Part shown: in pieces, positions 2,331 through 48,113 of the stretch
Layout of the letters: each line of letters opens with the position of its first letter
How positions within the stretch are numbered: the first letter of the stretch is position 1
Notes under the pieces: generated by a model
The model's database searches: none
The model's input: the letters and a program-made list of their open reading frames with translations, nothing else
Told to the model about the DNA's origin: nothing
Position numbers and translations under genes: made by a program
Origin: Octopus vulgaris
Lineage: Eukaryota
NCBI GenBank assembly: GCA_951406725.2
Contig: OX597830.1
Span: forward strand, 56,792,001 to 56,856,000
Reading direction: 5' to 3'
DNA length: 64,000 bases

Positions 2331-3000
2331 TGGCAATCAATATTTCTGTAAATTTTCAGGGCCTTTGCCAATCAAGGCTGAACAGGCATTTTTATATGTT
2401 TGACCAGACCCAGTCAAGCATTTTTGTAGGAGATGAGCAGTTACCCATACATGTGTATTTTACCCATACATCCATGCTGCTGATGTTTATCAGAAGAAAA
2501 GCCTGACAACTTGCGCCAACAGAGTTTTGATATCTGTGTTATTTTAGGCTTTGCAGGGAGAACAGAAATCTAGAATAAATACTGCAGGGCATTTTGCCTG
2601 ATTCTCTACAGTTACACTTCCCTGGATAAGCACTGGATAAATCATTGTAATGGTGAAAGGTAATGTTGTCTTTTGTGGGATTTGAAAAGTCAAAGCACCA
2701 CAAGGCGTTCGGCCCAGCCTTTTACAAGAAATATAAAAAAAAGAGGTTTATTCTTATTTACACAGTTATTTCCACATAGAGTGTCATTAGAGGTCCTTGA
2801 GCTGGCTACTTTGAGTCAGTATCAAGATTTAGAAAAAGCAAATATATATCATTAAAGAGAACAAATTTTCAGATAGAGTTGAAGTCAATGTACTTGTTGA
2901 AAAGAGAGCTGAATTCTCTGGTAGGTTTATGTGTTAGGAGAGATTTATCAAGGATGGGCAGTGTGAGAAAGAGGGACAGAGACAGTAAAAGAAATATCCC

Positions 3001-30425: not shown

Positions 30426-31997
30426 TCATATGTTGTGGTGTGTGTTAGTGTTCCATTCTAGTTTTCTATTCAGGCTAGGTTTATTTTCTATTATGTGTGT
30501 AGCTTCTGTAATTTCTCTAATTGTTGCATCTGATCTATGTGTGGATAATATTTTAATTTCTATGTTATTGATTGATCCCCCGTGTTCTTGTTCGGTGTGT
30601 TGGTACAGAATCGATGAGCTTTTACCTTCTTTGAGTTGTCTCCAATGCACATTTATCCGCTCTCCTATGCTTCTTGCCGTTTCCCCTACGTATGTCGTTG
30701 TCTTGTTACTGCATCGTCCATCTATACATCTTATACTATAGACTACATTTCTCGCTTTACAGTTTGTTTGTCGGCTAAATCTACATACAGTACAGTACCT
30801 ATCTGTACAGGGGGTTCTACTAAAAGGATAGGTTCTACCAATTATAGATTTGATAGGGTTGCCTGGCTTTTCAACAACCTTAATTCTTAGCTTAAGTTTG
30901 TCTAGGGTCCTTCTAAAGCGATACGCCAGTTCACCTCCAGGGGTGGTGTCAACGAACATGACACTCTGGTATTTATGGCTATCATACCAAGATTTGGCCT
31001 TCCCTATTTTCTTTTTTGTCCTTTCTATAGTGTTCCATGACTTGTTCCTATAGAGTGGGCAAATACCATTCCTATCATTACATAATATATTATCAAATTT
31101 CTTCATGGCTCCTTTGTATACTCTGATCCTTTCTTTATGGCTGTAACCTGAGAACTGCATGCGGTGAATGAAATATTGTATGTGTCTCTTTAACTCTGTG
31201 GGCTCGCACATGCATGACACATTTCTCATTATTCTGACGAGGTCTGCCATCAAAATATTGAATTTGGCATTGTCCGCAATGGCTGAGTTCCGGTGGATCA
31301 AGTATTTTGAGGCCATAGGTTTTGCATAGTATGAATGAAGGATTTGGGTTTTATTATTCAAAATTTCTAGCCAGAGTTCGGTGTCTAGTACTGGTAGTCT
31401 ATGGTTGGGGTGTTTAGTGGGGTAGTCTATTGTGACCTTAATACTCTGGTGGATGGAGTTATCTATTTGCTGGATGCTCTCCATAGTATTAATTTCTATT
31501 ACTATAATAACATTACTCTCTTGTGGGGGTGCCTTTACCACTATGTTGATATCATCAACATAGCGAGAGTACATGTTTACGAGTATGGAGTTCTGTGTTA
31601 GGCGTTCTTTAAACCTTCTGTCCCACCATACCATGAAAAGGTTGGCCACATCACCAGCGATACTAACGCCGATGGCTGCCCCCTCGTCCTGGGCATATAT
31701 TTTATTATTAAACTTAAACGTGTGGCCTTTTAGGGTAACTCTTATACTAGCTCCTAGTGCATGTGCGATCATTTTCTTTATCTGATGGACATTTGCGGGT
31801 CTCCGTATGGCTCTGGTCCATCCGCGCCATCTTTCTATATGTGTCTTCCTAGCCATAGAAGTAATTGTGGGCGGTCTACCTCTTAAACATCTACTGGGGC
31901 AGAAACTACTAAGATTATGTTTATCTAAGTATTCAGTATTACATGTCAGTCTAAGTAGGAGGCCCAGTTCTTCTGTGTTGACATTACAGAACTCCAC
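30426..31997 (-). CDS. Penelope-like RT/GIY-YIG polyprotein (partial)
   Basis: 523-aa ORF with RYVDD and GIY-YIG motifs. Confidence 0.8.
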   Translation of the reverse strand: MEFCNVNTEELGLLLRLTCNTEYLDKHNLSSFCPSRCLRGRPPTITSMARKTHIERWRGWTRAIRRPANVHQIKKMIAHALGASIRVTLKGHTFKFNNKIYAQDEGAAIGVSIAGDVANLFMVWWDRRFKERLTQNSILVNMYSRYVDDINIVVKAPPQESNVIIVIEINTMESIQQIDNSIHQSIKVTIDYPTKHPNHRLPVLDTELWLEILNNKTQILHSYYAKPMASKYLIHRNSAIADNAKFNILMADLVRIMRNVSCMCEPTELKRHIQYFIHRMQFSGYSHKERIRVYKGAMKKFDNILCNDRNGICPLYRNKSWNTIERTKKKIGKAKSWYDSHKYQSVMFVDTTPGGELAYRFRRTLDKLKLRIKVVEKPGNPIKSIIGRTYPFSRTPCTDRYCTVCRFSRQTNCKARNVVYSIRCIDGRCSNKTTTYVGETARSIGERINVHWRQLKEGKSSSILYQHTEQEHGGSINNIEIKILSTHRSDATIREITEATHIIENKPSLNRKLEWNTNTHHNI

Positions 31998-32586
31998 CTG
32001 GCTCTAATTGATCATCTCCACGCACTTCTCCACCGCAAAATCTACGTCGATCGATGGGTATAGGGATACCACATCCATGCTACCCACCATACATCCTGTC
32101 AGGTCACAAGTGCTGTTACAGTCATCGATCCTGCTGAGGAGATCTTCTGTGCTGTCAAAAACAGCAGGTGACATCCGGATTATAGGGCATATGACCATTG
32201 AGAGGAAGTAGGAGATTCTATAATTGCTAGCGATATTCGCTCCACAGACTGGTGGTGTTGGTGGTCCTGCTATAGGGTCAGTAATTATTTTATGGTCCTT
32301 GCGAAGTCCATACAGTGCCGGGATATCATTGTTCCAGGCTTGGAAATTATTTCCTGTACGTTTCTGGGGTCCCACAACAATTGTCCATATCATCATGTGA
32401 GCGTTGAGGACCTTTTCTCTCTCCTCATGTGCCTGTACAGTTGTTATCTTTGTATTGGCGATATGAGGTTGCATTGCCTGGATGTAGTTCGGTTAGCTGT
32501 CTATTGACATCCTGCCGGACTTATCTCTAGGAAGACATACCAAATCTCCGTTCCTCGTGCGCTGAATGAGCTTATGTAGGCCACAT

Positions 32587-32649
<63 letters not shown>

Positions 32650-34394: not shown

Positions 34395-36932
34395 ATATAT
34401 ATAAATATATATATACATTTAAATATTTGTTGTGCAAGATTTTTTATGTGAAGTCGTGTGTTGAAACAGATATTGTTATATTTCGGAATGGTCATATTGC
34501 CAGTTGAGCCAATAAAAACACACGCACTATATATTCGGTGTTATTTTTGCTTTAGTGATATTTATTTTTTACATTAATCTTAATCTTATTTCGGCCAAAG
34601 TTCTTTCGTCACACTCCTGTGACCGCATCAGTGGTCCTTTGTTTTCTTCTCACTTACTTGTGTCTCTCCTTACTAACCGTCAGCCATTTTGTATTTCTAT
34701 TGTATGTCTTCATTTGCGCATGCTTATATCTCCATGTGCGTCTATGTTTATTTAGTGTGTGTGTGGGGGGATGCCCGTAATATTTCTATCTTCTGTTTAT
34801 ATACATTCTTGTAATTTGTATCTTGTTTTTGTTGTTGTTGCTTTTGTTCGAATTGTGTTCATGTGTTTACATCCACCCATTATTATCATTACATATGCTT
34901 GTATGTATGTATAACAACAATATTAGTAATAATAATAATAAATCTAATCGAAAAAAAAAAAAATATATATATATATACACATATATATATACATATATAC
35001 ACACATGTATACACATATACATATATATATACACACATACATATATATAGTTATTCATTTCTATTTCTTTAACTACCTCTGTATTTATTATGTTTGCAGG
35101 ATCCACTATCGTCATATGTTGTGGTGTGTGCTATTGCTCCATTCTAGTTTTCTATTCAGGCTAGGTTTATTTTCTATTATATGTGTAGCTTCTGTAATTT
35201 GTCTAATTGTTGCATCTGTTCTATGTGTGGACAATATCTTAATCTCTATGTTATTGATTGATCCCCCGTGTTCTTGTTCGGCGTGTTGGTACAGAATCGA
35301 TGAGCTTTTACCTTCCTTGAGTTGTCTCCAATGTTCATTCACCCGCTCTCCAATGCTTCTTGCTGTTTCCCCTACGTATGTTACTGTCTTGTTACTGCAT
35401 CGTCCCTCTATACATCTTATACTATAGACCACATTTCTGGCTTTACAGTTTGTTTGTGGGCTAAATCTACATACAGTGCAATAGTTATCCGTACAGAGAG
35501 TTCTACTAAAAGGATAGGTTCTACCAATTATAGATCTGATAGCGTTGCCTGGCTTTTCAACAACCTTAATTCTTAGTTTCAGTTTATCTAGGGTCCTTCT
35601 AAAGCGGTACGCCAGTTCACCTCCAGGGGTGGTGTCAACGAACATGACACTCTGGTATTTATGGCTATCATACCAAGAGTTGGCCTTCCCTATTTTCTTT
35701 TTTGTCCTTTCTATAGTGTTCCATGACTTGTTCCTCTAGAGTGGGCAAATCCCATTCCTATCATTACATAATATATTATCAAATTTCTTCATGGCTCCTT
35801 TGTATACTCTGATCCTTTCTTTATGGCTGTAACCTGAGAACTGCATGCGGTGAATGAAATACTGTATGTGTCTCTTTAATTCTGTAGGCTCGCACATGCG
35901 TGACACATTTCTCATTATTCTGACGAGGTCTGCCATCAAAATATTGAATTTGGCATTGCCCGCAATGGCTGAGTTCCGGTGGATCAGGTATTTTTAGGCC
36001 ATAGGTTTTGCATAGTATGAATGAAGGATTTGGGTTTTATTTTTCACAATTTCTAGCCAGAGTTCAGTGTCTAGTACTGGTAGTCTATGGTTGGGGTGTT
36101 TAGTGGGGTAGTCTATTGTGACCTTAATACTCTGGTGGATGGAGTTAGCTATTTGCTGGATGCTCTCCATAGTATTAGTTTCTATTACTATATCAACATT
36201 ACTCTCTTGTGGGGGTGCCTTTACTACTATATTGATATCATCAACATAGCGAGAGTACATGTTTACGAGTATGGATTTCTGCAGTAGGCATTCTTTAAGC
36301 CTTCTGTCCCACCATACCATGAAGAGGTTGGCCACATCACCAGCGATACTAACACCGATGGCTGCCCCTTCGTCCTGGGCAGATATTTTATTATTAAATT
36401 TAAATGTATGGCCTTTTAGGGTAACTCTTATACTAGCTCCTAGTGCATGAGCGATCATTTTCTTTACCTGATGGACATTTGCGGGGCTCCGTATGGCTCT
36501 GGTCCATCCGCGCCATCTTTCTATATGTGTCTTCCTAGCCATAGAAGTAATTGTAGGCGGTCTACCACTTAAACATCTACTGGGGCAGAAACTACTAAGA
36601 TTATGTTTATCTAAGTATTCACTATTATATGTCAGTCTAAGTAGGAGGCCCAGTTCTTCTGTGTCGACATTACAGAACTCCACCTGGCTCTCGTTGATCA
36701 TCTCCACGCACTTCTCCACTGCAAAATCTACGTCAATCGATGGGTATAGGGATACCACATCCATGCTACCTACTATACATCCTGTCAAGTCACAAGTTTT
36801 GTTACAGTCACTGATCCTGCTTAGGAGATCTTCTGTGCTGTCACACACATCAGGTGACATCCTGATTATAGGGCGTATGATCATTGAGAGGAAGTAGGAG
36901 ATTCTGTAATTGCTAGCGATATTCGCTCCACA
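34395..36932 (-). mobile_element. Second Penelope-like element, 5'-truncated
   Basis: Closely similar to 29769-32590; stops at 35994 and 35736; GIY-YIG in ORF 35112-35645. Confidence 0.92.
34593..34637 (-). ncRNA. Minimal hammerhead-like motif, second Penelope copy
   Basis: GGACCA-CTGATGC-G-GTCAC aggagt GTGAC-GAAA-GAAC-TT-TGGCC. Confidence 0.55.
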
Positions 36933-36948
36933 GATAACAATACTCATA

Positions 36949-38056
36949 GGAGTTAAACAGCTTCTCCCTGGTCGGAAACCATGTTGGGTGTCAGGCAGCA
37001 AGTCATTCTCTTCAAGGAAGGTGATCAGTTTCCTTCTGACTATTCGTTCCATGACCTTGCTGATGTGTGAGGTCAGAGAGATAGGTCTGTAGTTCTTGGC
37101 CTCCGCACTGCTACCTCCTTTATGAATGGGGCATATTTTACCTTCCTTCAGTTTTCTTGTAAGTTTGCCAGCTGCAAGGAAGCTCTGAAAGAGGAACTGC
37201 AGTGGTCTTGCTAGGACTCTCTTACATACTTTTAGGAGGATTGCCGGGAATCCATCGGGGCCAGTAGCTGAGTCTGTTTTCATTTCATCTATAGCCTTGA
37301 TTACATCGTCTTCCTTTATATCGATGTAATTTATCGTCGCCGCCTCTGACCCCATATCTGGAGTGGTGAAGAAGTCAGTTGGATTGGTGATTTGGAGATG
37401 CCCAAGGGGTGGAGTGAAAACACTCTTGAATTGCTCATTCAGTATTTCACTTACCCTCATTGGTTTTCCTGTAAGTGTGCCATCCTTTTCAAGGAGTGGC
37501 CCTATTCTACAGAGTAGCGTAGCTGTTTCTTTGGCAGACCTGTAGAAAGCTCTGGGGTTAGATTTTATGTTGTCTATAGCCCAGGCTTCTTTGTCTGCTC
37601 TTTCTTTTTCATGGGAGAGTTGCAGACATTTTTCAATTTCCAACAGTTTTATTTTTAGGCGGGACTTTTCACTGCTTTCAATCTGTTTGTTTAGGCGATT
37701 TGAAATTTTTGTACGCCGTCTCATTAATTTTTCCTCTCTCTGGGGATTTTGTCCTTGTGTACAGTGGCCTTTCTCACTGGGACGCATTTGTTGCATATGG
37801 CTTGCATTACAGACATGAATTGTTGAAGTTTCACGTCGATGTCTGGCGAGAAGAGACATTTAGGCCAGTTTTGTTTGAGGATCTCTTTCTCAATTTGTTT
37901 CCAGTTTGCCTTATGGTAGTTCAAGCTGGAAAGATTCTGAGGGTTTCTTGTAGGCTGCATGTCCGTGCTCTCTTTTGGCCCGTACATAGTCATCTCTACC
38001 ATGTTGTGATCCGTGAGTAGTGTCGGTGTCACTTTCACATTATGGATGAGATCCAT
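36949..38056 (-). mobile_element. Internal CR1-group LINE fragment (lineage A) abutting the Penelope element
   Basis: Runs from the end of the endonuclease (TDHNMV) to [12 protein letters not shown]. Confidence 0.9.
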
Positions 38057-40280: not shown

Positions 40281-40284
<4 letters not shown>

Positions 40285-42015
40285 CCACTTTACCAGCGGC
40301 CAAAGAGACAAAAATTGAGTACATCAACATCGAAGAAGATGATATCACACTAGCCATTGATGAGATTGACACAAACTCAGCTGCTGGACCTGATGGATTC
40401 CCAGCGATCCTTCTCAAATCGTGCAAACGAGCCCTTGCAAAACCGCTACAGCTTCTTTTTCAGAGCTTTCTTGCAAGTGGTAAGCTCCCAGTCAAACTGA
40501 AAGAGGGCTAATATGCCCTATCCATAAGGGAGGTAGCATAGCAGATGCTAAAACTTATAGGCCTATCTCTCTGACCTCACACATTAGCAAAGTCATGGAA
40601 CGAATAGTCCGTAAGAAACTAATCATGTTCCTTGAAGAAAATGACTTACTGTCTGACACCCAGCATGGATTTCGACCAGGTAGAGGCTGCCTAACACAGC
40701 TCCTGCAACACTATGACTGGGTGTTGAAACAGCTACTAAATGGCTCAAATGTGGATGTAATATATCTCGACTTTGCAAAAGCCTTTGATAAAGTCGACCA
40801 TGGTATGATCTGTCACAAACTGCGTGGTCTCGGCATAGGCGGGAAACTTGGAGAGTGGCTGCACAACTTCCTAAAAGACAGAAAACAGGCAGTTGTGAGC
40901 AATGGAGCCACCTCCAAGGAAACGCAAATAACAAGCGGTGTCCCACAGGGCACTGTCTTGGGGCCACTGATGTTCATAGTGGCCCTTTCAGACATGCCTT
41001 CAGTTGCTACGATGACCACCCTTGCTAGCTATGCAGATGACACAAAAGTCTCCCACGCAATACAAAACCCTGAAAATATTGCGCATCTGCAACATGAGCT
41101 GGACACAATATACAGGTGGGCTGAGGACAACAACATGCAGTTTAATGCAGGTAAGTTCCAGGCCCTGCGCTACTGGCACACAAAGGTAAATGACGTGAAG
41201 ACTGGATACACTGGCCCAGGAAGAATTGCAATCCCTGAGTCAAAATCAGTGCGTGACCTGGGCATTGACATGAGCAATGATGCATCTTTCCAAATGCATA
41301 TTGCTAATCTGGTGATAAAATGCAGACGGCTAGCTGGATGGATTCTCCGAACTTTCAGAACAAGAGAGAAGGAGACACTGATGGTCCTATGGAAAACATT
41401 TGTCCTCAGCCGCTTGGACTACTGCTCCCAACTTTGGTCACCACACAATATAAAACAAACAGCAGAACTCGAAGCAACTCAGAGAAGCTACACAAAGAAA
41501 ATCGTCTCAATGCAAAATGTCAGCTACTGGGAAAGACTGAAGGTATTAAACCTCTTCTCCCTGGAGCGGAGGCGGGAGAGATATGCAGTGATATACATCT
41601 GGAAAATCCTGGAGGGTCTTGTCCCAAACTTCAAAGTTACTCCAACCGCAGAACGGGGCGCCGCTGCGTGGTGCCAAGGATTCCAACATCACCATCAAAA
41701 TACAGGTCCAGATACTGCAACAGCTTGGGTTTCAGAGGACCACAGCTCTTTAACATCCTCCCTAAATGCCTGAGAGACTTACATGGTGTGGATGTGGGTT
41801 TCTTTAAAACTAAACTGGATCTCTTCTTGTTGGGATACCCAGATGAACCTATCTCACGACAGGAGACACGGATGCGGGCAGCAGCATCGAACTCCCTTGT
41901 TGATCAAGTGCCACGTATCAGAGGTGGATTCACAAACTAGTGTAGCTCATTCAGCGGTGGTGCCCCAGCATGGCCGCGGCCTTCGGGCTAAAACATTTTT
42001 AAGGATTTAAGGATT
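40281..42015 (+). mobile_element. CR1-group LINE, 5'-truncated, lineage C
   Basis: 392-aa RT ORF at 40595-41773; AAGGATTT repeat tail. Confidence 0.93.
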
Positions 42016-42051
42016 TATATATATACGTATATATGTATATATATATATACG

Positions 42052-42604
42052 ATGATAAATATCAAAGTGAGTTATATACAGTAGCGGTAACACATCGTGA
42101 CGTATATTTGCCATCTCAATATGGCTACCCCTAAGGGTGGATGCTACTATAGTTTTTAGCCCCAGGAGGACACACTCCTCCAGCTGGCCATAGACACACT
42201 TTCTGTGTCCTGTCAGTATTTGCAAAGGGAAGTCATCCTTCCCGTCTTCAACTTATGATACACACGGACTCGAGTATCGAGGTATTGACCTCTCGTCAGC
42301 GTGTGACAATCATAGTTGTCGGCGAGAATTAGATTTCCTTCACAAATACTTATACTTTTTCCAGCGTCCACTGTCGCTGATATTGAAAAAGTGAAATCAA
42401 ACAATGATAAATATCAAAGTGAGTTATATACAGTAGCGGTAACACATCGTGACGTATATTTGCCATCTCAATATGGCTACCGCTAAGGGTGGATGCTACT
42501 GTAGTTTTTAGCCCCAGGAGGACACACTCCTCCAGCTGGCCATTGACACACTTTCTGTGTCCTGTCAGTATTTGCAAAGGGAAGTCATCCTTCCCGTCTT
42601 CAAC
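42052..42604 (-). mobile_element. Retrozyme-like partial tandem repeat (352-bp period) containing a hammerhead motif
   Basis: 42052-42252 is repeated at 42404-42604; hammerhead-like motif at 42261-42305; (AT)n on both flanks; no credible ORF. Confidence 0.7.
42261..42305 (-). ncRNA. Type I hammerhead-like motif (A14U variant)
   Basis: CACACG-CTGACGA-GAGG tcaata CCTC-GATA-CTCGAG-TC-CGTGTG, with a perfect 6-bp stem I. Confidence 0.72.
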
Positions 42605-42648
<44 letters not shown>

Positions 42649-44222
42649 GTATATATATATATATATATATACGTATATAAGCGAATATAAGTGAAAGTAC
42701 AACAAGTCACTGTATTTGAGAAGAATATTTTCGCTTTTGATATAGTATTTTGCAACTAGAACATACTCGCGAATACACGTGTTAAAACGCACGTGTGTTA
42801 CTTTCCCGAAATCGAAGTGAATTTTATTCTTCGTCTGTGAATCAACAAGACACAGGATATTTTCGTTTTTGATGTATATCTGCGTGTTCTGAAAAAAGCC
42901 TCTGAAAAATTTGCTGCTTAATACCAAATCGCTTAGGAAAATACAGAAAGTATTCCTCAAACTGTTGCATGTGCTAAATCGAAACTCAAATCCCTTTTGT
43001 TTACAAAGTGCGCTTAAGGAATATAAAAGGTCTGTCTTGTCTATCTATCTTCCTTTCTCATAAAAAGGAATCGCGTAAGTACTCTCTCAGCCGGTAAGGT
43101 AAGGAAGATATTATTTATTTTGTTATCATTAGTGTTCTTTCAAACAGAAAATAATAATATATCTATGTGTATGTATATGTGTGTGTTAGAAGTATAGTCG
43201 CAATTAGTTTTTATTTTAGAAGACATTGTCTGTAGCGACGGACAAATATATATTTTCTTTTCTCTTTTTCTCTGCTTAAATTCTGTAAAATCTCTATGTG
43301 TATGTATATGTGTGTGTTAAAAGTATAGTCGCAATTAGTTTTTATTTTAGAAGACATTGTCTGTAGCGACGGACAAATACATATTTTCTTTTCTCTTTTT
43401 CTCTGCTTAAATTCTGTAAAATCTCTTGGATTGTTTTCTTTCAGCTATTTCATTATTATTATTATTGTTTCTTTATATACTCACTTGGTACTACTGTTTA
43501 CATATGAGAGATGGAAACAGGAAACACCAACCACAGAGTGTCAAAAAATGACATGCCCACTGCCACAGTCGAAGAAGGCAATATATGTGCATGTGCACAC
43601 ATGTGTATATGTGTGTATATGTATGTATACGCGTGTATGTGTGTGTACAAATAGCTTCGCTTAGAATTCTCCCCTCTCTCTCTCTCTGTCTGTCTCTTCA
43701 GTTCTCTCCCTCACGCTTCTCCTTGTCTCTTCATAACTCTCATTCTATCTTACTCCCCTTTTTCAAATATATAAATTCTCTCTATATTTCTTCCTTCTCT
43801 CCCTATCTCTTCAGTTTCTCTCCCGCTTCTCCTTGTCTCTCCATTACTCTCTTCTATCTCTTCAGTTTCTCTCCCGCTTCTCCTTGTCTCTCCATTACTC
43901 TCTTCTAACTTACTCTCCTCTCTCGGATACATATAAGGACATAGACGCTTTCTCTCTCTTCCTTCAGCTCTCAGTCTCTCCTCTTCCTCTTCTCTCTTAC
44001 TCTCGGCTCCCAATTTCTCCTTAAGTACATAGACGCTCCCTTTCTCTACTTCCTCCCTACCCCCTATTGCACTATTAGATTAATATAAATTAATATAATA
44101 TAATTAATATAATTAATATAATATAATATAATATAATTCCTCCCTTCCTCACAATCTCTTCCTCTCTCCTCCCTTCTCCCTTTTTCCCTCACAGCTTCTC
44201 TCTCTCTCCCCGCTACAACGGA

Positions 44223-45174
44223 ATGGACAACATGCAAAAATTAGAGGTGAATGCAAACACTGGCGTCAACAAAAGCCAGCGTAACTGGACGAAAGTAGAG
44301 CTGGAAGTTTTCATCAGAGGATGGAGCTCGGCCGACAGATCGCAACCAACTAAAAACATAGCGGCGACCCTGAAAAGCCATGGCTTTATGAGGACGTTGG
44401 CGCAAGTAGAGAGGAAGAAAAGAGAAGTCGAAAGGGCCTACACTCTCATTGCACCACACATGGCTTTGCTAAGCCAAGTCCTCAAGGTGGACAAAGACAA
44501 AGAGAGAGAGATGGAAACAGGAAACACCAACCACAGAGTGTCAAAAAATGACACGCCCACTGCCACAGTCGAAGAAGGCAAGCAGGGCAAACAACAGATA
44601 GGCGGCGATGGGGAAACGGAAAATAACCACCCGGATGAAAATACCTATGCAGAAAGGAACCAGTGGACAACCGTCCAACGGAGGAAGAAAAAACAGAGGA
44701 ACTGGGGACAAGAAAACCCAGATAACATGCAAATTCTTCCGGAATGGAACCTGCTGGCATGGAGAAACAGGGGAAGGATGCAGGTTCGCTCATCCCAGGC
44801 CCTATGGAAATTGCATCAAACCCACTCGACCAAAATGCCTTAACCAAAACCAAGACCGAAACCAAAACCAGAACAAATACAAGCTGCCCCAGAAATATGC
44901 AGACATAGTGCGTAATGCCCCAACAAGGAGAAGGCGCACATTTGCAGAGGAAATGCAGACGGCGGCAGCAGAACAAAGAAATTTTGTGGAAATAGCAGAG
45001 AAAATTGTGGGACAACTGGCCTGGATACATCGTCTTCAGAGCCAGGGGCACTCACAACAGCACTCAAGACCACCACAATCAAGGGACCCAGGGTGGCCAC
45101 CGCTGACACCAGCCCAGGTGCCACACCGTCAGCCTTTATTGACACCCCAAATATCTCACCAGTGCTTCTGCTGA
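44223..45174 (+). pseudogene. LINE ORF1: Myb/SANT-like domain plus CCCH zinc finger (one frameshift)
   Basis: RNWTKVELEVFIRGW...IAATLKSHGFMRTLAQVERKK and CKFFRNGTCWHGETGEGCRFAH; homologous to 54518-55494. Confidence 0.75.
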
Positions 45175-48113
45175 ATGTCAGAGGTCTGGTGAAACCCACT
45201 AATATGAGTAAAATTCCTTACCTTAGGGACTTAAGCACAAGCAACCATGCAATATGCATAGCGCTGACTGAAACGCACCTGTCAAGCAGTATAGCAGATG
45301 CAGAAATACACATACCAAAGTATACTGTTTTTCGGTCAGACAGGAAGGAAAGAACTCATGGTGGGGTTGCCCTGTACGTCCGTGAAGATGTCACACCCAT
45401 AGTACTGTTGACACACTCAAACTCAGTCTGTGACACACTGATAGTACACATGAAACAACCGAAAATAGTAATATGTGTCACATATCGGCCACCAGACACC
45501 CCTAGTCATGAAGGAGTGTTTGAAGATAGCCTCAGAAGAATAGAAGAAGTCCTGGACAAACTGGACCAGGGTAACACCATTCTACTGCTGGGAGATTTTA
45601 ACCTTCCGAAAGTCAAATGGCCAGATGGCCATCTCCTCCCTGGAATGACATCACTTGAACAGAGACAGACAGAGTCCTTGTTGGCTCTCACACGCAAGTT
45701 TTTCATGGAGCAAGCAGTGCTTCGGCCAACAAGAGGTGAGAATGTCTTGGACCTCTGTTTCACAAGCAACCCGATGCTCATCCACAACATAATGGTAACA
45801 CCAACAATTCTCTCAGATCACAACTTAGTAGAGGTAATGATATATGGTATGAGAGAGTTAGTTGAGACGCAGCCATTAGAAAATACCACAGGCCTATCCA
45901 GTCTAAACTTCCATAAGGCAAACTGGAAGAAGATCAACGAAGAGATCCGAAAACATGACTGGAGTGACTTCATCACCACACAAGACACCAACACACATTT
46001 CCAACATTTCATGACAACAATACAGAACATATGCCATAAGTTTGTCCCGGAGAGAAAAGCCAGCGGGCATAGGAACGTTATTCCCAGAGACAGGAAAATA
46101 CTTATGAGGCGAAGAGCTAAGCTCTCGAAGCAACTGAATGCACGGCAGAGAAACAATGAGGGACACCACCTGAAACTTTTGAAACGGAAACTGCACTCAA
46201 ACTTTCCTATGAGAAGGAGGGGGCAGAGAGAGAAGCCAGGGCCATAGAGAATATTAAAACAAACCCTAAAGCCTTCTTTAAATTTGCGAAAGAAACCACC
46301 TCGGTACACTGCAAGATTGGCCCACTCTTTGATAAAAAGGGCTCTCTAACTGAGGACCCCCAAGGGATAAGTGAAATACTAAAGGAACAGTATAAAAGTG
46401 TGTTCACATCCCCTCTGGGGCACATGCAAATCACAAACCCAGAAGTTTTCTTTGATGCCACAACACTCCAAAACCAAACAACAACCATCGACCACATAGA
46501 CATAACAGAGAGGGATGTAATATCTGCCATAGAAGAAATGAGAATAAACTCAGCTGCTGGACCAGATGGATTCCCAGCAGTTCTCCTAAAAGCATGCAGG
46601 CATACCCAAGCGGGACCACTGAAGAAGCTCTTCAGTGGTTCCTTGGCTAACGGTAAACTGCCCAGGGCGCTAAAAGAAGGCACCATATGCCCTATCCACA
46701 AAGGAGGGAGTAGAGTAGAGGCCAAAAACTACAGGCCAGTCTCCCTGACGTCACACATAAGTAAGGTCATGGAACGAATCATCAGAAAAAAACTGATCAC
46801 GTTCCTCGAAGAAACTAACCGTCTCACTGACACACAGCATGGCTTTCGCCCAGGAAGAAGCTGCCTTACGCAGCTGCTACAACACTACGACTGGGTACTG
46901 AAACAACTACTGGATCGCTCACAGGTGGATGTGGTATATCTCGACTTTGCGAAGGCCTTTGACAAAGTCGACCACGGAGTGATATGTCACAAATTACTCA
47001 GACTCGGCATAACAGGAAAAGTAGGTGAGTGGATACATGACTTCCTGAAGGACAGAAGCCAGATGGTTGCAGCCAATGGAGCCCTCTCGGGAAAGACACC
47101 AATAGCAAGCGGGGTGCCACAGGGCACAGTCTTGGGACCCTTGCTGTTTTTGGTGGCGCTCTATGACATGCCCTTGGTAGCACAAACAACATCCCTCACT
47201 AGCTATGCTGATGACACAAAGGTAGCACAGGCAGTCAAAAACCCAGCTGATGCTGACCTTTTACAACAAGATCTGGATGCCATATACAAATGGGCTGAAG
47301 ACTACAACATGCAATTTAATGCTGGTAAATTTCAAGCCTTACAATATCAAGCTGTAAACACATATACATTACAACACAACTATACTGGTCCAGGAGGGAT
47401 CGAAATCCCAGTATCGAAATCAATACGGGACCTGGGGATAGACATGAGTGACGATGCATCTTTTTCTTCACACATCGCGAAGGTGGCGACAATGTGCAGA
47501 CGACTCACTGGCTGGATCCTGAGGACATTCCGGACAAGAGACTGCGAGACCATGTTGACACTATGGAGGACATTTGTCCTAAGCCGCCTGGACTACTGCT
47601 CCCAACTGTGGTCACCGCATAGTGTCAAACTAACCACAGAGCTTGAGACAATCCAAAGACATTTCACCAAGAGGATTTCCACCATGAAAGAAAAGAACTA
47701 TTGGGAGAGGCTTAGGGAACTCAATTTGTACTCCTTGGAACGAAGACGAGAGAGATATGCAGTGATATACATATCGAAAATCCTGGAGGGACTAGCACCA
47801 AATTTTGGAATTGAGAGCTGTTCCAATCCCCGTACAGGACGTCACTGTGTGGTGCCAAAGGTCCCGTCTTCCACATCCAGGGTAAGGAGCAGATACTGTA
47901 ATAGCCTGGGGTTCAGGGGCCCTCAGCTGTTCAACAAACTGCCAAGAAAACTAAGAGATCTACATGATGCGGATGTGGACATTTTCAAAAACATCTAGAC
48001 AAGCTGCTTTCCGGGATCCCAGATGAACCCACTGCAAGGTACGAAGGTAACCTAAGGGCAGCAGCTACAAACTCTCTCTTAGATCAGTGGCCAGCCACGG
48101 CAAACTGGACTTA
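45162..48113 (+). pseudogene. LINE ORF2: AP endonuclease and reverse transcriptase (frameshifted)
   Basis: LNVRGL, LTETHL, GGVALYV, YRPP, LLGDFN, SDHN; YLDFAKAFDKV, GVPQG, YADD. Confidence 0.92.

Follow-up and report, generated by a model that had tools for sequence, protein, structure and literature searches.

A partially duplicated, non-coding insert lies between two (TA)n tracts in a 64,000-nucleotide stretch of the Octopus vulgaris genome (contig OX597830.1, positions 56,792,001 to 56,856,000; hereafter the window, numbered from its first letter). It raises the question of what kind of element leaves such a partial dimer, and which template and which enzyme brought it there.

A partial dimer and its hammerhead motif

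The element spans 42052 to 42604 (553 bp; GC 43%) and its ends form a direct repeat (42052-42252 and 42404-42604; 201 bp, 3 mismatches) with a spacing of 352 bp, as the initial annotation had described. Read on the minus strand, the sense of the RNA, it is a single-armed retrozyme insertion of 1.57 units of a 352-nt monomer, set between (TA)n target remnants at 42016-42051 and 42606-42679. The (AT)n flanks and the lack of a credible ORF, both reported at the outset, hold up: the element's two frames of at least 80 aa extend into the (TA)n on either side. Positions in the unit are given as q, with q1 at 42052 and the RNA running toward lower q. The left end of copy 1 is a fixed start point, B, which is the RNA 3' end of this insertion, and a second fixed start point, A (42094, minus strand), lies 42 nt from B; most other copies end at A, which is read through here. 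Copy 2 stops at q201, a variable 5' truncation 14 nt short of the would-be second cleavage site, and the window copy is classed as one-armed and B-type. The unit is strongly self-paired, with a fold z of -6.6 as a linear and -6.0 as a circular molecule.

A LINE copy with a reverse transcriptase (RT) occupies 40282-42015 on the plus strand (Pfam RVT_1 on 40484-41770) and terminates in two TAAGGATT units directly left of the retrozyme-bearing (TA)n. A tie between the retrozyme and this LINE, which ends 36 bp leftward, was rejected, as inspection by eye found the LINE tail in no other printed flank. A second LINE copy with an RT follows at about 44900-48000 (plus strand), and its 5' region holds a 76-bp repeat (43506-43581 and 44506-44581, spacing exactly 1000 bp) and a 131-bp tandem at 43155-43426.

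The once-present part of the element contains a type I hammerhead motif with an extended stem I (42256-42312, minus strand), in which cleavage is predicted between 42267 and 42266. Stem I has 6 bp plus 4 bp past an internal loop, the core strand is CUGACGA, stem II has 4 bp and a 6-nt loop, GUC stands at the predicted cleavage site, and the 2-bp stem III lies within the palindrome ACUCGAGU. Rfam gave no hammerhead match at E<=1, its 14 weak matches all falling under the gathering score and none being a hammerhead. The call is based on inspection of the core letters, on stem I, which is present in the MFE fold, and on conservation in relatives, and on these grounds the minus-strand type I motif of the initial annotation is borne out. 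Among 68 distinct relatives the stem I pairs are kept in 60 to 68, and stem II pair 2, paired in 66, swaps between A-U (41) and G-C (24) across subfamilies; the core is intact across the family, with 6 changes in 2471 core letters. A CCGAUGA core occurs in 10 of the 68 distinct hammerheads. Unrelated hammerheads that share the palindromic stem III were met at five loci (L126, L133, L136, L137 and L140), and a general hammerhead motif has 916 matches in the genome, from which it follows that further families exist.

The GAUA at 42276 (minus strand), which had been read as part of the repeat unit's core, turned out to be private to the window copy. GAAA is found in 289 of 290 aligned units, the one exception being the window copy, in all 100 genomic core matches listed and in 8 of 8 public runs compared; the alternative of a natural family variant was rejected accordingly. 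The changed position is presumably A14, altered to U, and we assume that the change would be likely to impair cleavage. Since GAUA is private to this copy, the locus, a mutated member of a young retrozyme family, is likely to be a dead product; with a single damaged hammerhead it would not itself release a monomer.

Family, ends and targets

The duplication is not unique to this locus, a possibility that the initial annotation had entertained: a 22-nt core pattern has 475 exact matches in the 2.8-Gb genome (control, 0), and a looser 21-mer that takes in older subfamilies has 1013. Units are 352 or 353 nt long, arms reach 6 units and insertions 7.8 units. As dispersed head-to-tail multimers with one hammerhead per unit and no ORF, they support the retrozyme identity first suggested, and the unit belongs to a young, non-coding, non-LTR retrozyme family. 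Metazoan non-LTR retrozymes, as outlined in the text of PMC7229834, are tandem non-coding units of 150-450 bp with GC under 45-50% and one type I hammerhead each, those of mussel measuring 350-390 bp (Cervera and de la Pena 2020). The octopus family resembles them in its dispersed head-to-tail units, single type I hammerhead, low GC and strong self-pairing. It differs from them in that it is known from sequence alone, whereas in PMC7229834 cleavage and circles are experimental, and in its fixed double starts, inverted arms and (TA)n targeting, which were not found in the parts of that paper available to us.

We aligned 404 units from 125 young loci. Fifty-three loci were taken consecutively from among the first 100 core matches and 72 were picked by similarity or tandem cores, so that lengths in the sample are biased upward. 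Left out of the counts were L036 (which duplicates L034), L031 (made up of two unconnected pieces), overlapping duplicates in L001-L030, and stray pieces in L040, L044, L056, L011, L086, L090 and L236. L034 and L036 are near-identical insertions, oppositely oriented and separated by 1 Mb, and represent a segmental duplication or an assembly duplicate. Older subfamilies stand at about 88%, 80% and 70% identity and have the same ends where these are seen. Neither this family nor an A+B rule for retrozymes (described below) is recorded in the main texts of the literature searched, and the main text of the octopus repeat paper (PMC13282606) makes no mention of hammerhead, ribozyme or retrozyme.

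RNA 3' ends of the insertions fall at A (q43-47), 173 nt downstream of the predicted cleavage site, and at B (q1), 42 nt further on at 215 nt. One-armed loci (n=61) begin at A in 46 cases, at B in 11 and elsewhere in 4. The 64 two-armed loci are head-to-head; 57 pair A with B, 7 have one damaged outer end, and none is A+A or B+B, giving A+B in 57 of 57 intact two-armed insertions. This rule recurs in a second set of 47 loci (27/27). The 5' ends are scattered around the unit and are most frequent near q65-96. The initial annotation had asked whether other copies are circularly permuted multimers; they are multimers but are not freely permuted, since the 3' ends lie at two points and the 5' ends alone vary. 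(TA)n adjoins 99 of 106 A or B ends, and at 6 non-repeat targets, judged by eye, target-site duplications of 10-13 bp flank the insert.

A tail and an inverted copy on such A and B ends are the insertion signature of Penelope. For EN+ Penelope-like elements (PLEs), the text of PMC8557442 and PMC3846280 reports a one-sided tail of 30-40 bp together with an inverted copy that is 5'-truncated; PMC11167929 shows that the tail corresponds to the spacing of two internal sites where the RT starts and that each DNA strand is cut and extended, and it predicts a dimeric enzyme. The octopus family shares with these elements, so far as the accessible text of the three papers goes, the two 3' ends, the one-sided tail, the head-to-head inverted copy, microsatellite targets, mobilisation in trans and short target-site duplications (8-10 bp in PLEs). 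It departs from them in having no ORF, in that the hammerhead unit is the whole element, and in arms longer than the unit.

The template of the insertions

At 8 common variable sites, mismatch is 1.9% within a locus and 34% between loci. Fourteen locus-private substitutions are found in all units that cover the site, and for 9 this holds in both arms; with the units shuffled, the mean was 0.045 and the maximum 1 in 200. Another 167 private changes are confined to one unit, as expected of later mutation or RT error. A haplotype shared throughout an insertion favours rolling-circle copying: a monomer would be turned into a multimer at insertion, for which a circle is the simplest means. PMC7229834 demonstrates RNA circles for mussel, coral and axolotl, and proposes that a PLE RT uses the circle as its template and copies it into tandem cDNA. 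For the octopus family we consider it probable that an RNA circle is the main template.

Long arms could also arise without a circle, if a PLE copied a long uncut transcript running through a tandem source locus. The main substrate of a PLE in vitro is uncut RNA, according to the text of PMC11167929, and several patterns suit such a source. Seven private variants are present in part of the units only, 11 of the 116 loci with more than one unit are mixed at the common sites, and phase-matched variants occur in L063 and L090; read from the outer end inward, both arms of L063 repeat an identical order of presence and absence of a variant, a pattern suggestive of later conversion or of templates that were in some cases multimeric. 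An array of 9 units exists in an older subfamily (L303:2931-6050; 87% identity, outside (TA)n, patchwork variants, CCGAUGA core), and the statement that no long array was seen accordingly applies to the young subfamily. A linear source cannot, however, yield more units than it has itself. Genome-wide there are 115 adjacent core pairs, and among the 100 of them listed the longest young run is 5 cores; L055 carries a private change in all 5 of its cores, so that no source for it is visible among those pairs in this assembly. Nor does a tandem source readily account for several haplotypes that occur as homogeneous arrays of 4-6 units, with locus-private changes in every unit. We therefore judge templating by an uncut tandem transcript to be unlikely, and prefer the circle as main template.

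Another way to mimic a circle would be for the RT to jump from the 5' end of a linear, self-cleaved monomer to its own 3' end, and it is here that the ends at the predicted cleavage site matter. A first count had shown no pile-up of ends there (3/115 against 3.6 expected); it was biased because sampling needed an intact core, and a direct search of ends overturned it. That search, at q215-221, returned 25 matches, 3 of which were taken by eye as internal deletions; L291 also proved to be a deletion, leaving 21-22 true ends among 1013 units where about 7 were expected. Ten of 22 stand at q218, exactly 3 nt past the site (p about 0.003). In L288 both arms stop at q215, and between them lie short, reiterated stretches copied from the RNA 5' end; in L301 the arms stop at q216 and q213. 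Arms of this kind resemble what copying of linear, self-cut RNA would leave, and they offer an indirect indication that the predicted site may be cut in vivo. With a few insertions stopping at the cleavage site, linear cut RNA is likely a template too.

As the general source of multimers, however, a jumping RT on linear monomers is improbable. The cleavage site is crossed by 292 units without deletion, and junction indels are absent from all 178 units fully checked, a weak test as about 2 would be expected at background. The young family, moreover, has few cleavage-site ends: of 20 examined, 14 belong to older subfamilies (83-94% identical) and about 5, L273 included, to the young one. The rolling-circle reverse transcription proposed initially is thus favoured by the single haplotype per insertion, while the partly shared variants and the ends at the cleavage site go against a model of circles only.

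Six public runs, RNA by guess, contain the unit, with contigs that span it whole. Runs X5 and X6 (likewise RNA by guess) each yield one contig of 383 nt, equal to 353 + 30 as expected for a closed loop, and the X6 contig closes on itself with a joint that goes back 353. Such closure is no more than a hint of an expressed RNA circle, as tandem transcripts or DNA would look alike.

Candidate Penelope-like partners and a proposed insertion route

Three young PLE families with a C-terminal GIY-YIG-type domain show a target and a two-end pattern like those of the retrozyme; a CxxC motif before the endonuclease suggests that they may be Neptune-like. PLE-A has a 1312-aa frame, whose protein has no Pfam match, and its two ends are separated by 56 nt. 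The youngest copies of PLE-B keep an intact RT-endonuclease frame of 811 aa; the ends of this family are 42 nt apart, and 8 of its 9 two-armed copies are A+B. In PLE-C the ends are about 34-38 nt apart. No sequence similarity was found between the retrozyme unit and the ends of PLE-A, -B or -C, and PLE-A as the source of the unit was rejected on this ground; a second PLE-A protein search was filled by PLE-A's own copies. The Penelope alternative raised in the initial annotation accordingly fails as regards homology to the pLTR of the PLEs found and stands as regards PLE-type insertion scars. That PLE enzymes are the agent of retrozyme insertion we regard as very probable. A regular partner would fit PLE-B by its 42-nt spacing, or PLE-C by one hybrid.

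Further PLE sequences were seen in passing. The best match of a PLE protein in the neighbourhood is labelled Octopus vulgaris. Two very young, 5'-truncated PLE-A copies lie in the window at 30429-32588 and 35115-37112 (minus strand), the second within a LINE, and the full PLE-A frame has an Asn-rich stretch that recalls the N-rich inserts described in the text of PMC3846280. A PLE-A terminal repeat (L122, about 2640-2700, plus strand) holds a hammerhead-like motif with core CUGAUGC, a 5-bp stem II and GAAA. The endonuclease end of a further PLE family (L132:4418-4718, minus strand) lies about 90 bp from a same-sense 88% retrozyme copy. An ORF next to an older copy in L131 was rejected as a PLE, as it encodes a LINE-type RT.

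Direct joins to PLE coding DNA occur in 3 of 125 loci (L045, L074 and L239). L239 is a single head-to-head insertion in which a PLE-C arm that extends in full to its B end, and is 0.7% from the majority (other PLE-C copies, 0.2-0.9%), is joined directly to a retrozyme arm, and it looks like one insertion event. Its retrozyme arm begins at an atypical point near q297, so that PLE-C is no more than a candidate for the regular partner. L074 was rejected as a co-insertion: its PLE-B part is 3.3% from the majority against about 0.5% for the retrozyme, and the difference in age makes nesting probable. The nearest PLE-B copies to that of L045 are at 97%.

These joins also bear on the view that the unit is the pLTR of a coding PLE, or was duplicated locally in DNA after a monomer had inserted. 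Xenopus retrozymes resemble pLTRs, 24 of 57 families matching repeat-library entries that are nearly all PLE ends, and their tandems are discussed as local amplification in the available text of Li, Clavereau and Pollet (2026, 10.64898/2026.07.22.740005); the patchwork variants of L303 are likewise typical of local expansion. For the octopus, however, the three junctions lie at differing, unrelated places, the two PLE families involved have ends of unrelated sequence, and 122 of 125 loci showed no junction, at odds with the notion that all copies share identical ends on a coding element. Local duplication, moreover, predicts neither variants common to both inverted arms nor fixed A and B ends. 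For the young family this origin is largely refuted, and we consider it very improbable. The octopus and Xenopus retrozymes are alike in occurring alongside PLEs, for which hijacked PLE enzymes are proposed in the same text; they differ in that no pLTR homology was found for the octopus family, whose tandems were apparently made at insertion. Another likeness in habit is Chlamys MRC1, a non-coding, multicopy, head-to-tail PLE passenger, but MRC1-type elements share 3' sequence with an autonomous partner and their clade has no canonical hammerheads, as presented in the text of PMC8557442.

Taken as insertion in trans rather than local duplication, the window locus is likely a mutated copy of the 352/353-nt hammerhead family, put into (TA)n by a PLE that copied an RNA circle repeatedly. 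In outline, multimeric loci would be transcribed, hammerheads would excise monomers from the transcript, and these would be ligated into circles. A PLE protein, probably a dimer, would cut AT-rich DNA with a stagger and, using one DNA end or both, prime cDNA synthesis at points A and B of the RNA; each cDNA would circle the RNA until falling off, so that an insertion would have a single arm or a head-to-head pair, with no set arm length, and the window copy would be a one-armed B-type product. Of this model, what has been observed is the repeat and its family, the two fixed ends and the A+B rule that they follow, the target-site duplications and the single haplotype per insertion. More speculatively, a dimeric PLE may prime both cut ends at two points of one circle and roll from both, and may sometimes carry its own mRNA on one subunit and the retrozyme on the other, as L239 might illustrate; no sequence would be shared with the partner, for which PLE-B is the best candidate, and the arms that stop at the cleavage site could be relics of hammerhead cleavage that took place in the germ line.

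The window locus itself is ordinary, and likely a dead copy. The new retrozyme family contributes a spacing equal to that of an intact PLE, one hybrid insertion, and arms that end where the hammerhead is predicted to cut. The return of animal retrozymes to DNA, and the origin of PLE tails and inverted copies, have so far mostly been proposed. This family offers a short RNA, two mapped start points and intact candidate enzymes in one genome, and it yields distinct predictions for circular and linear templates that are suited to in vitro work.
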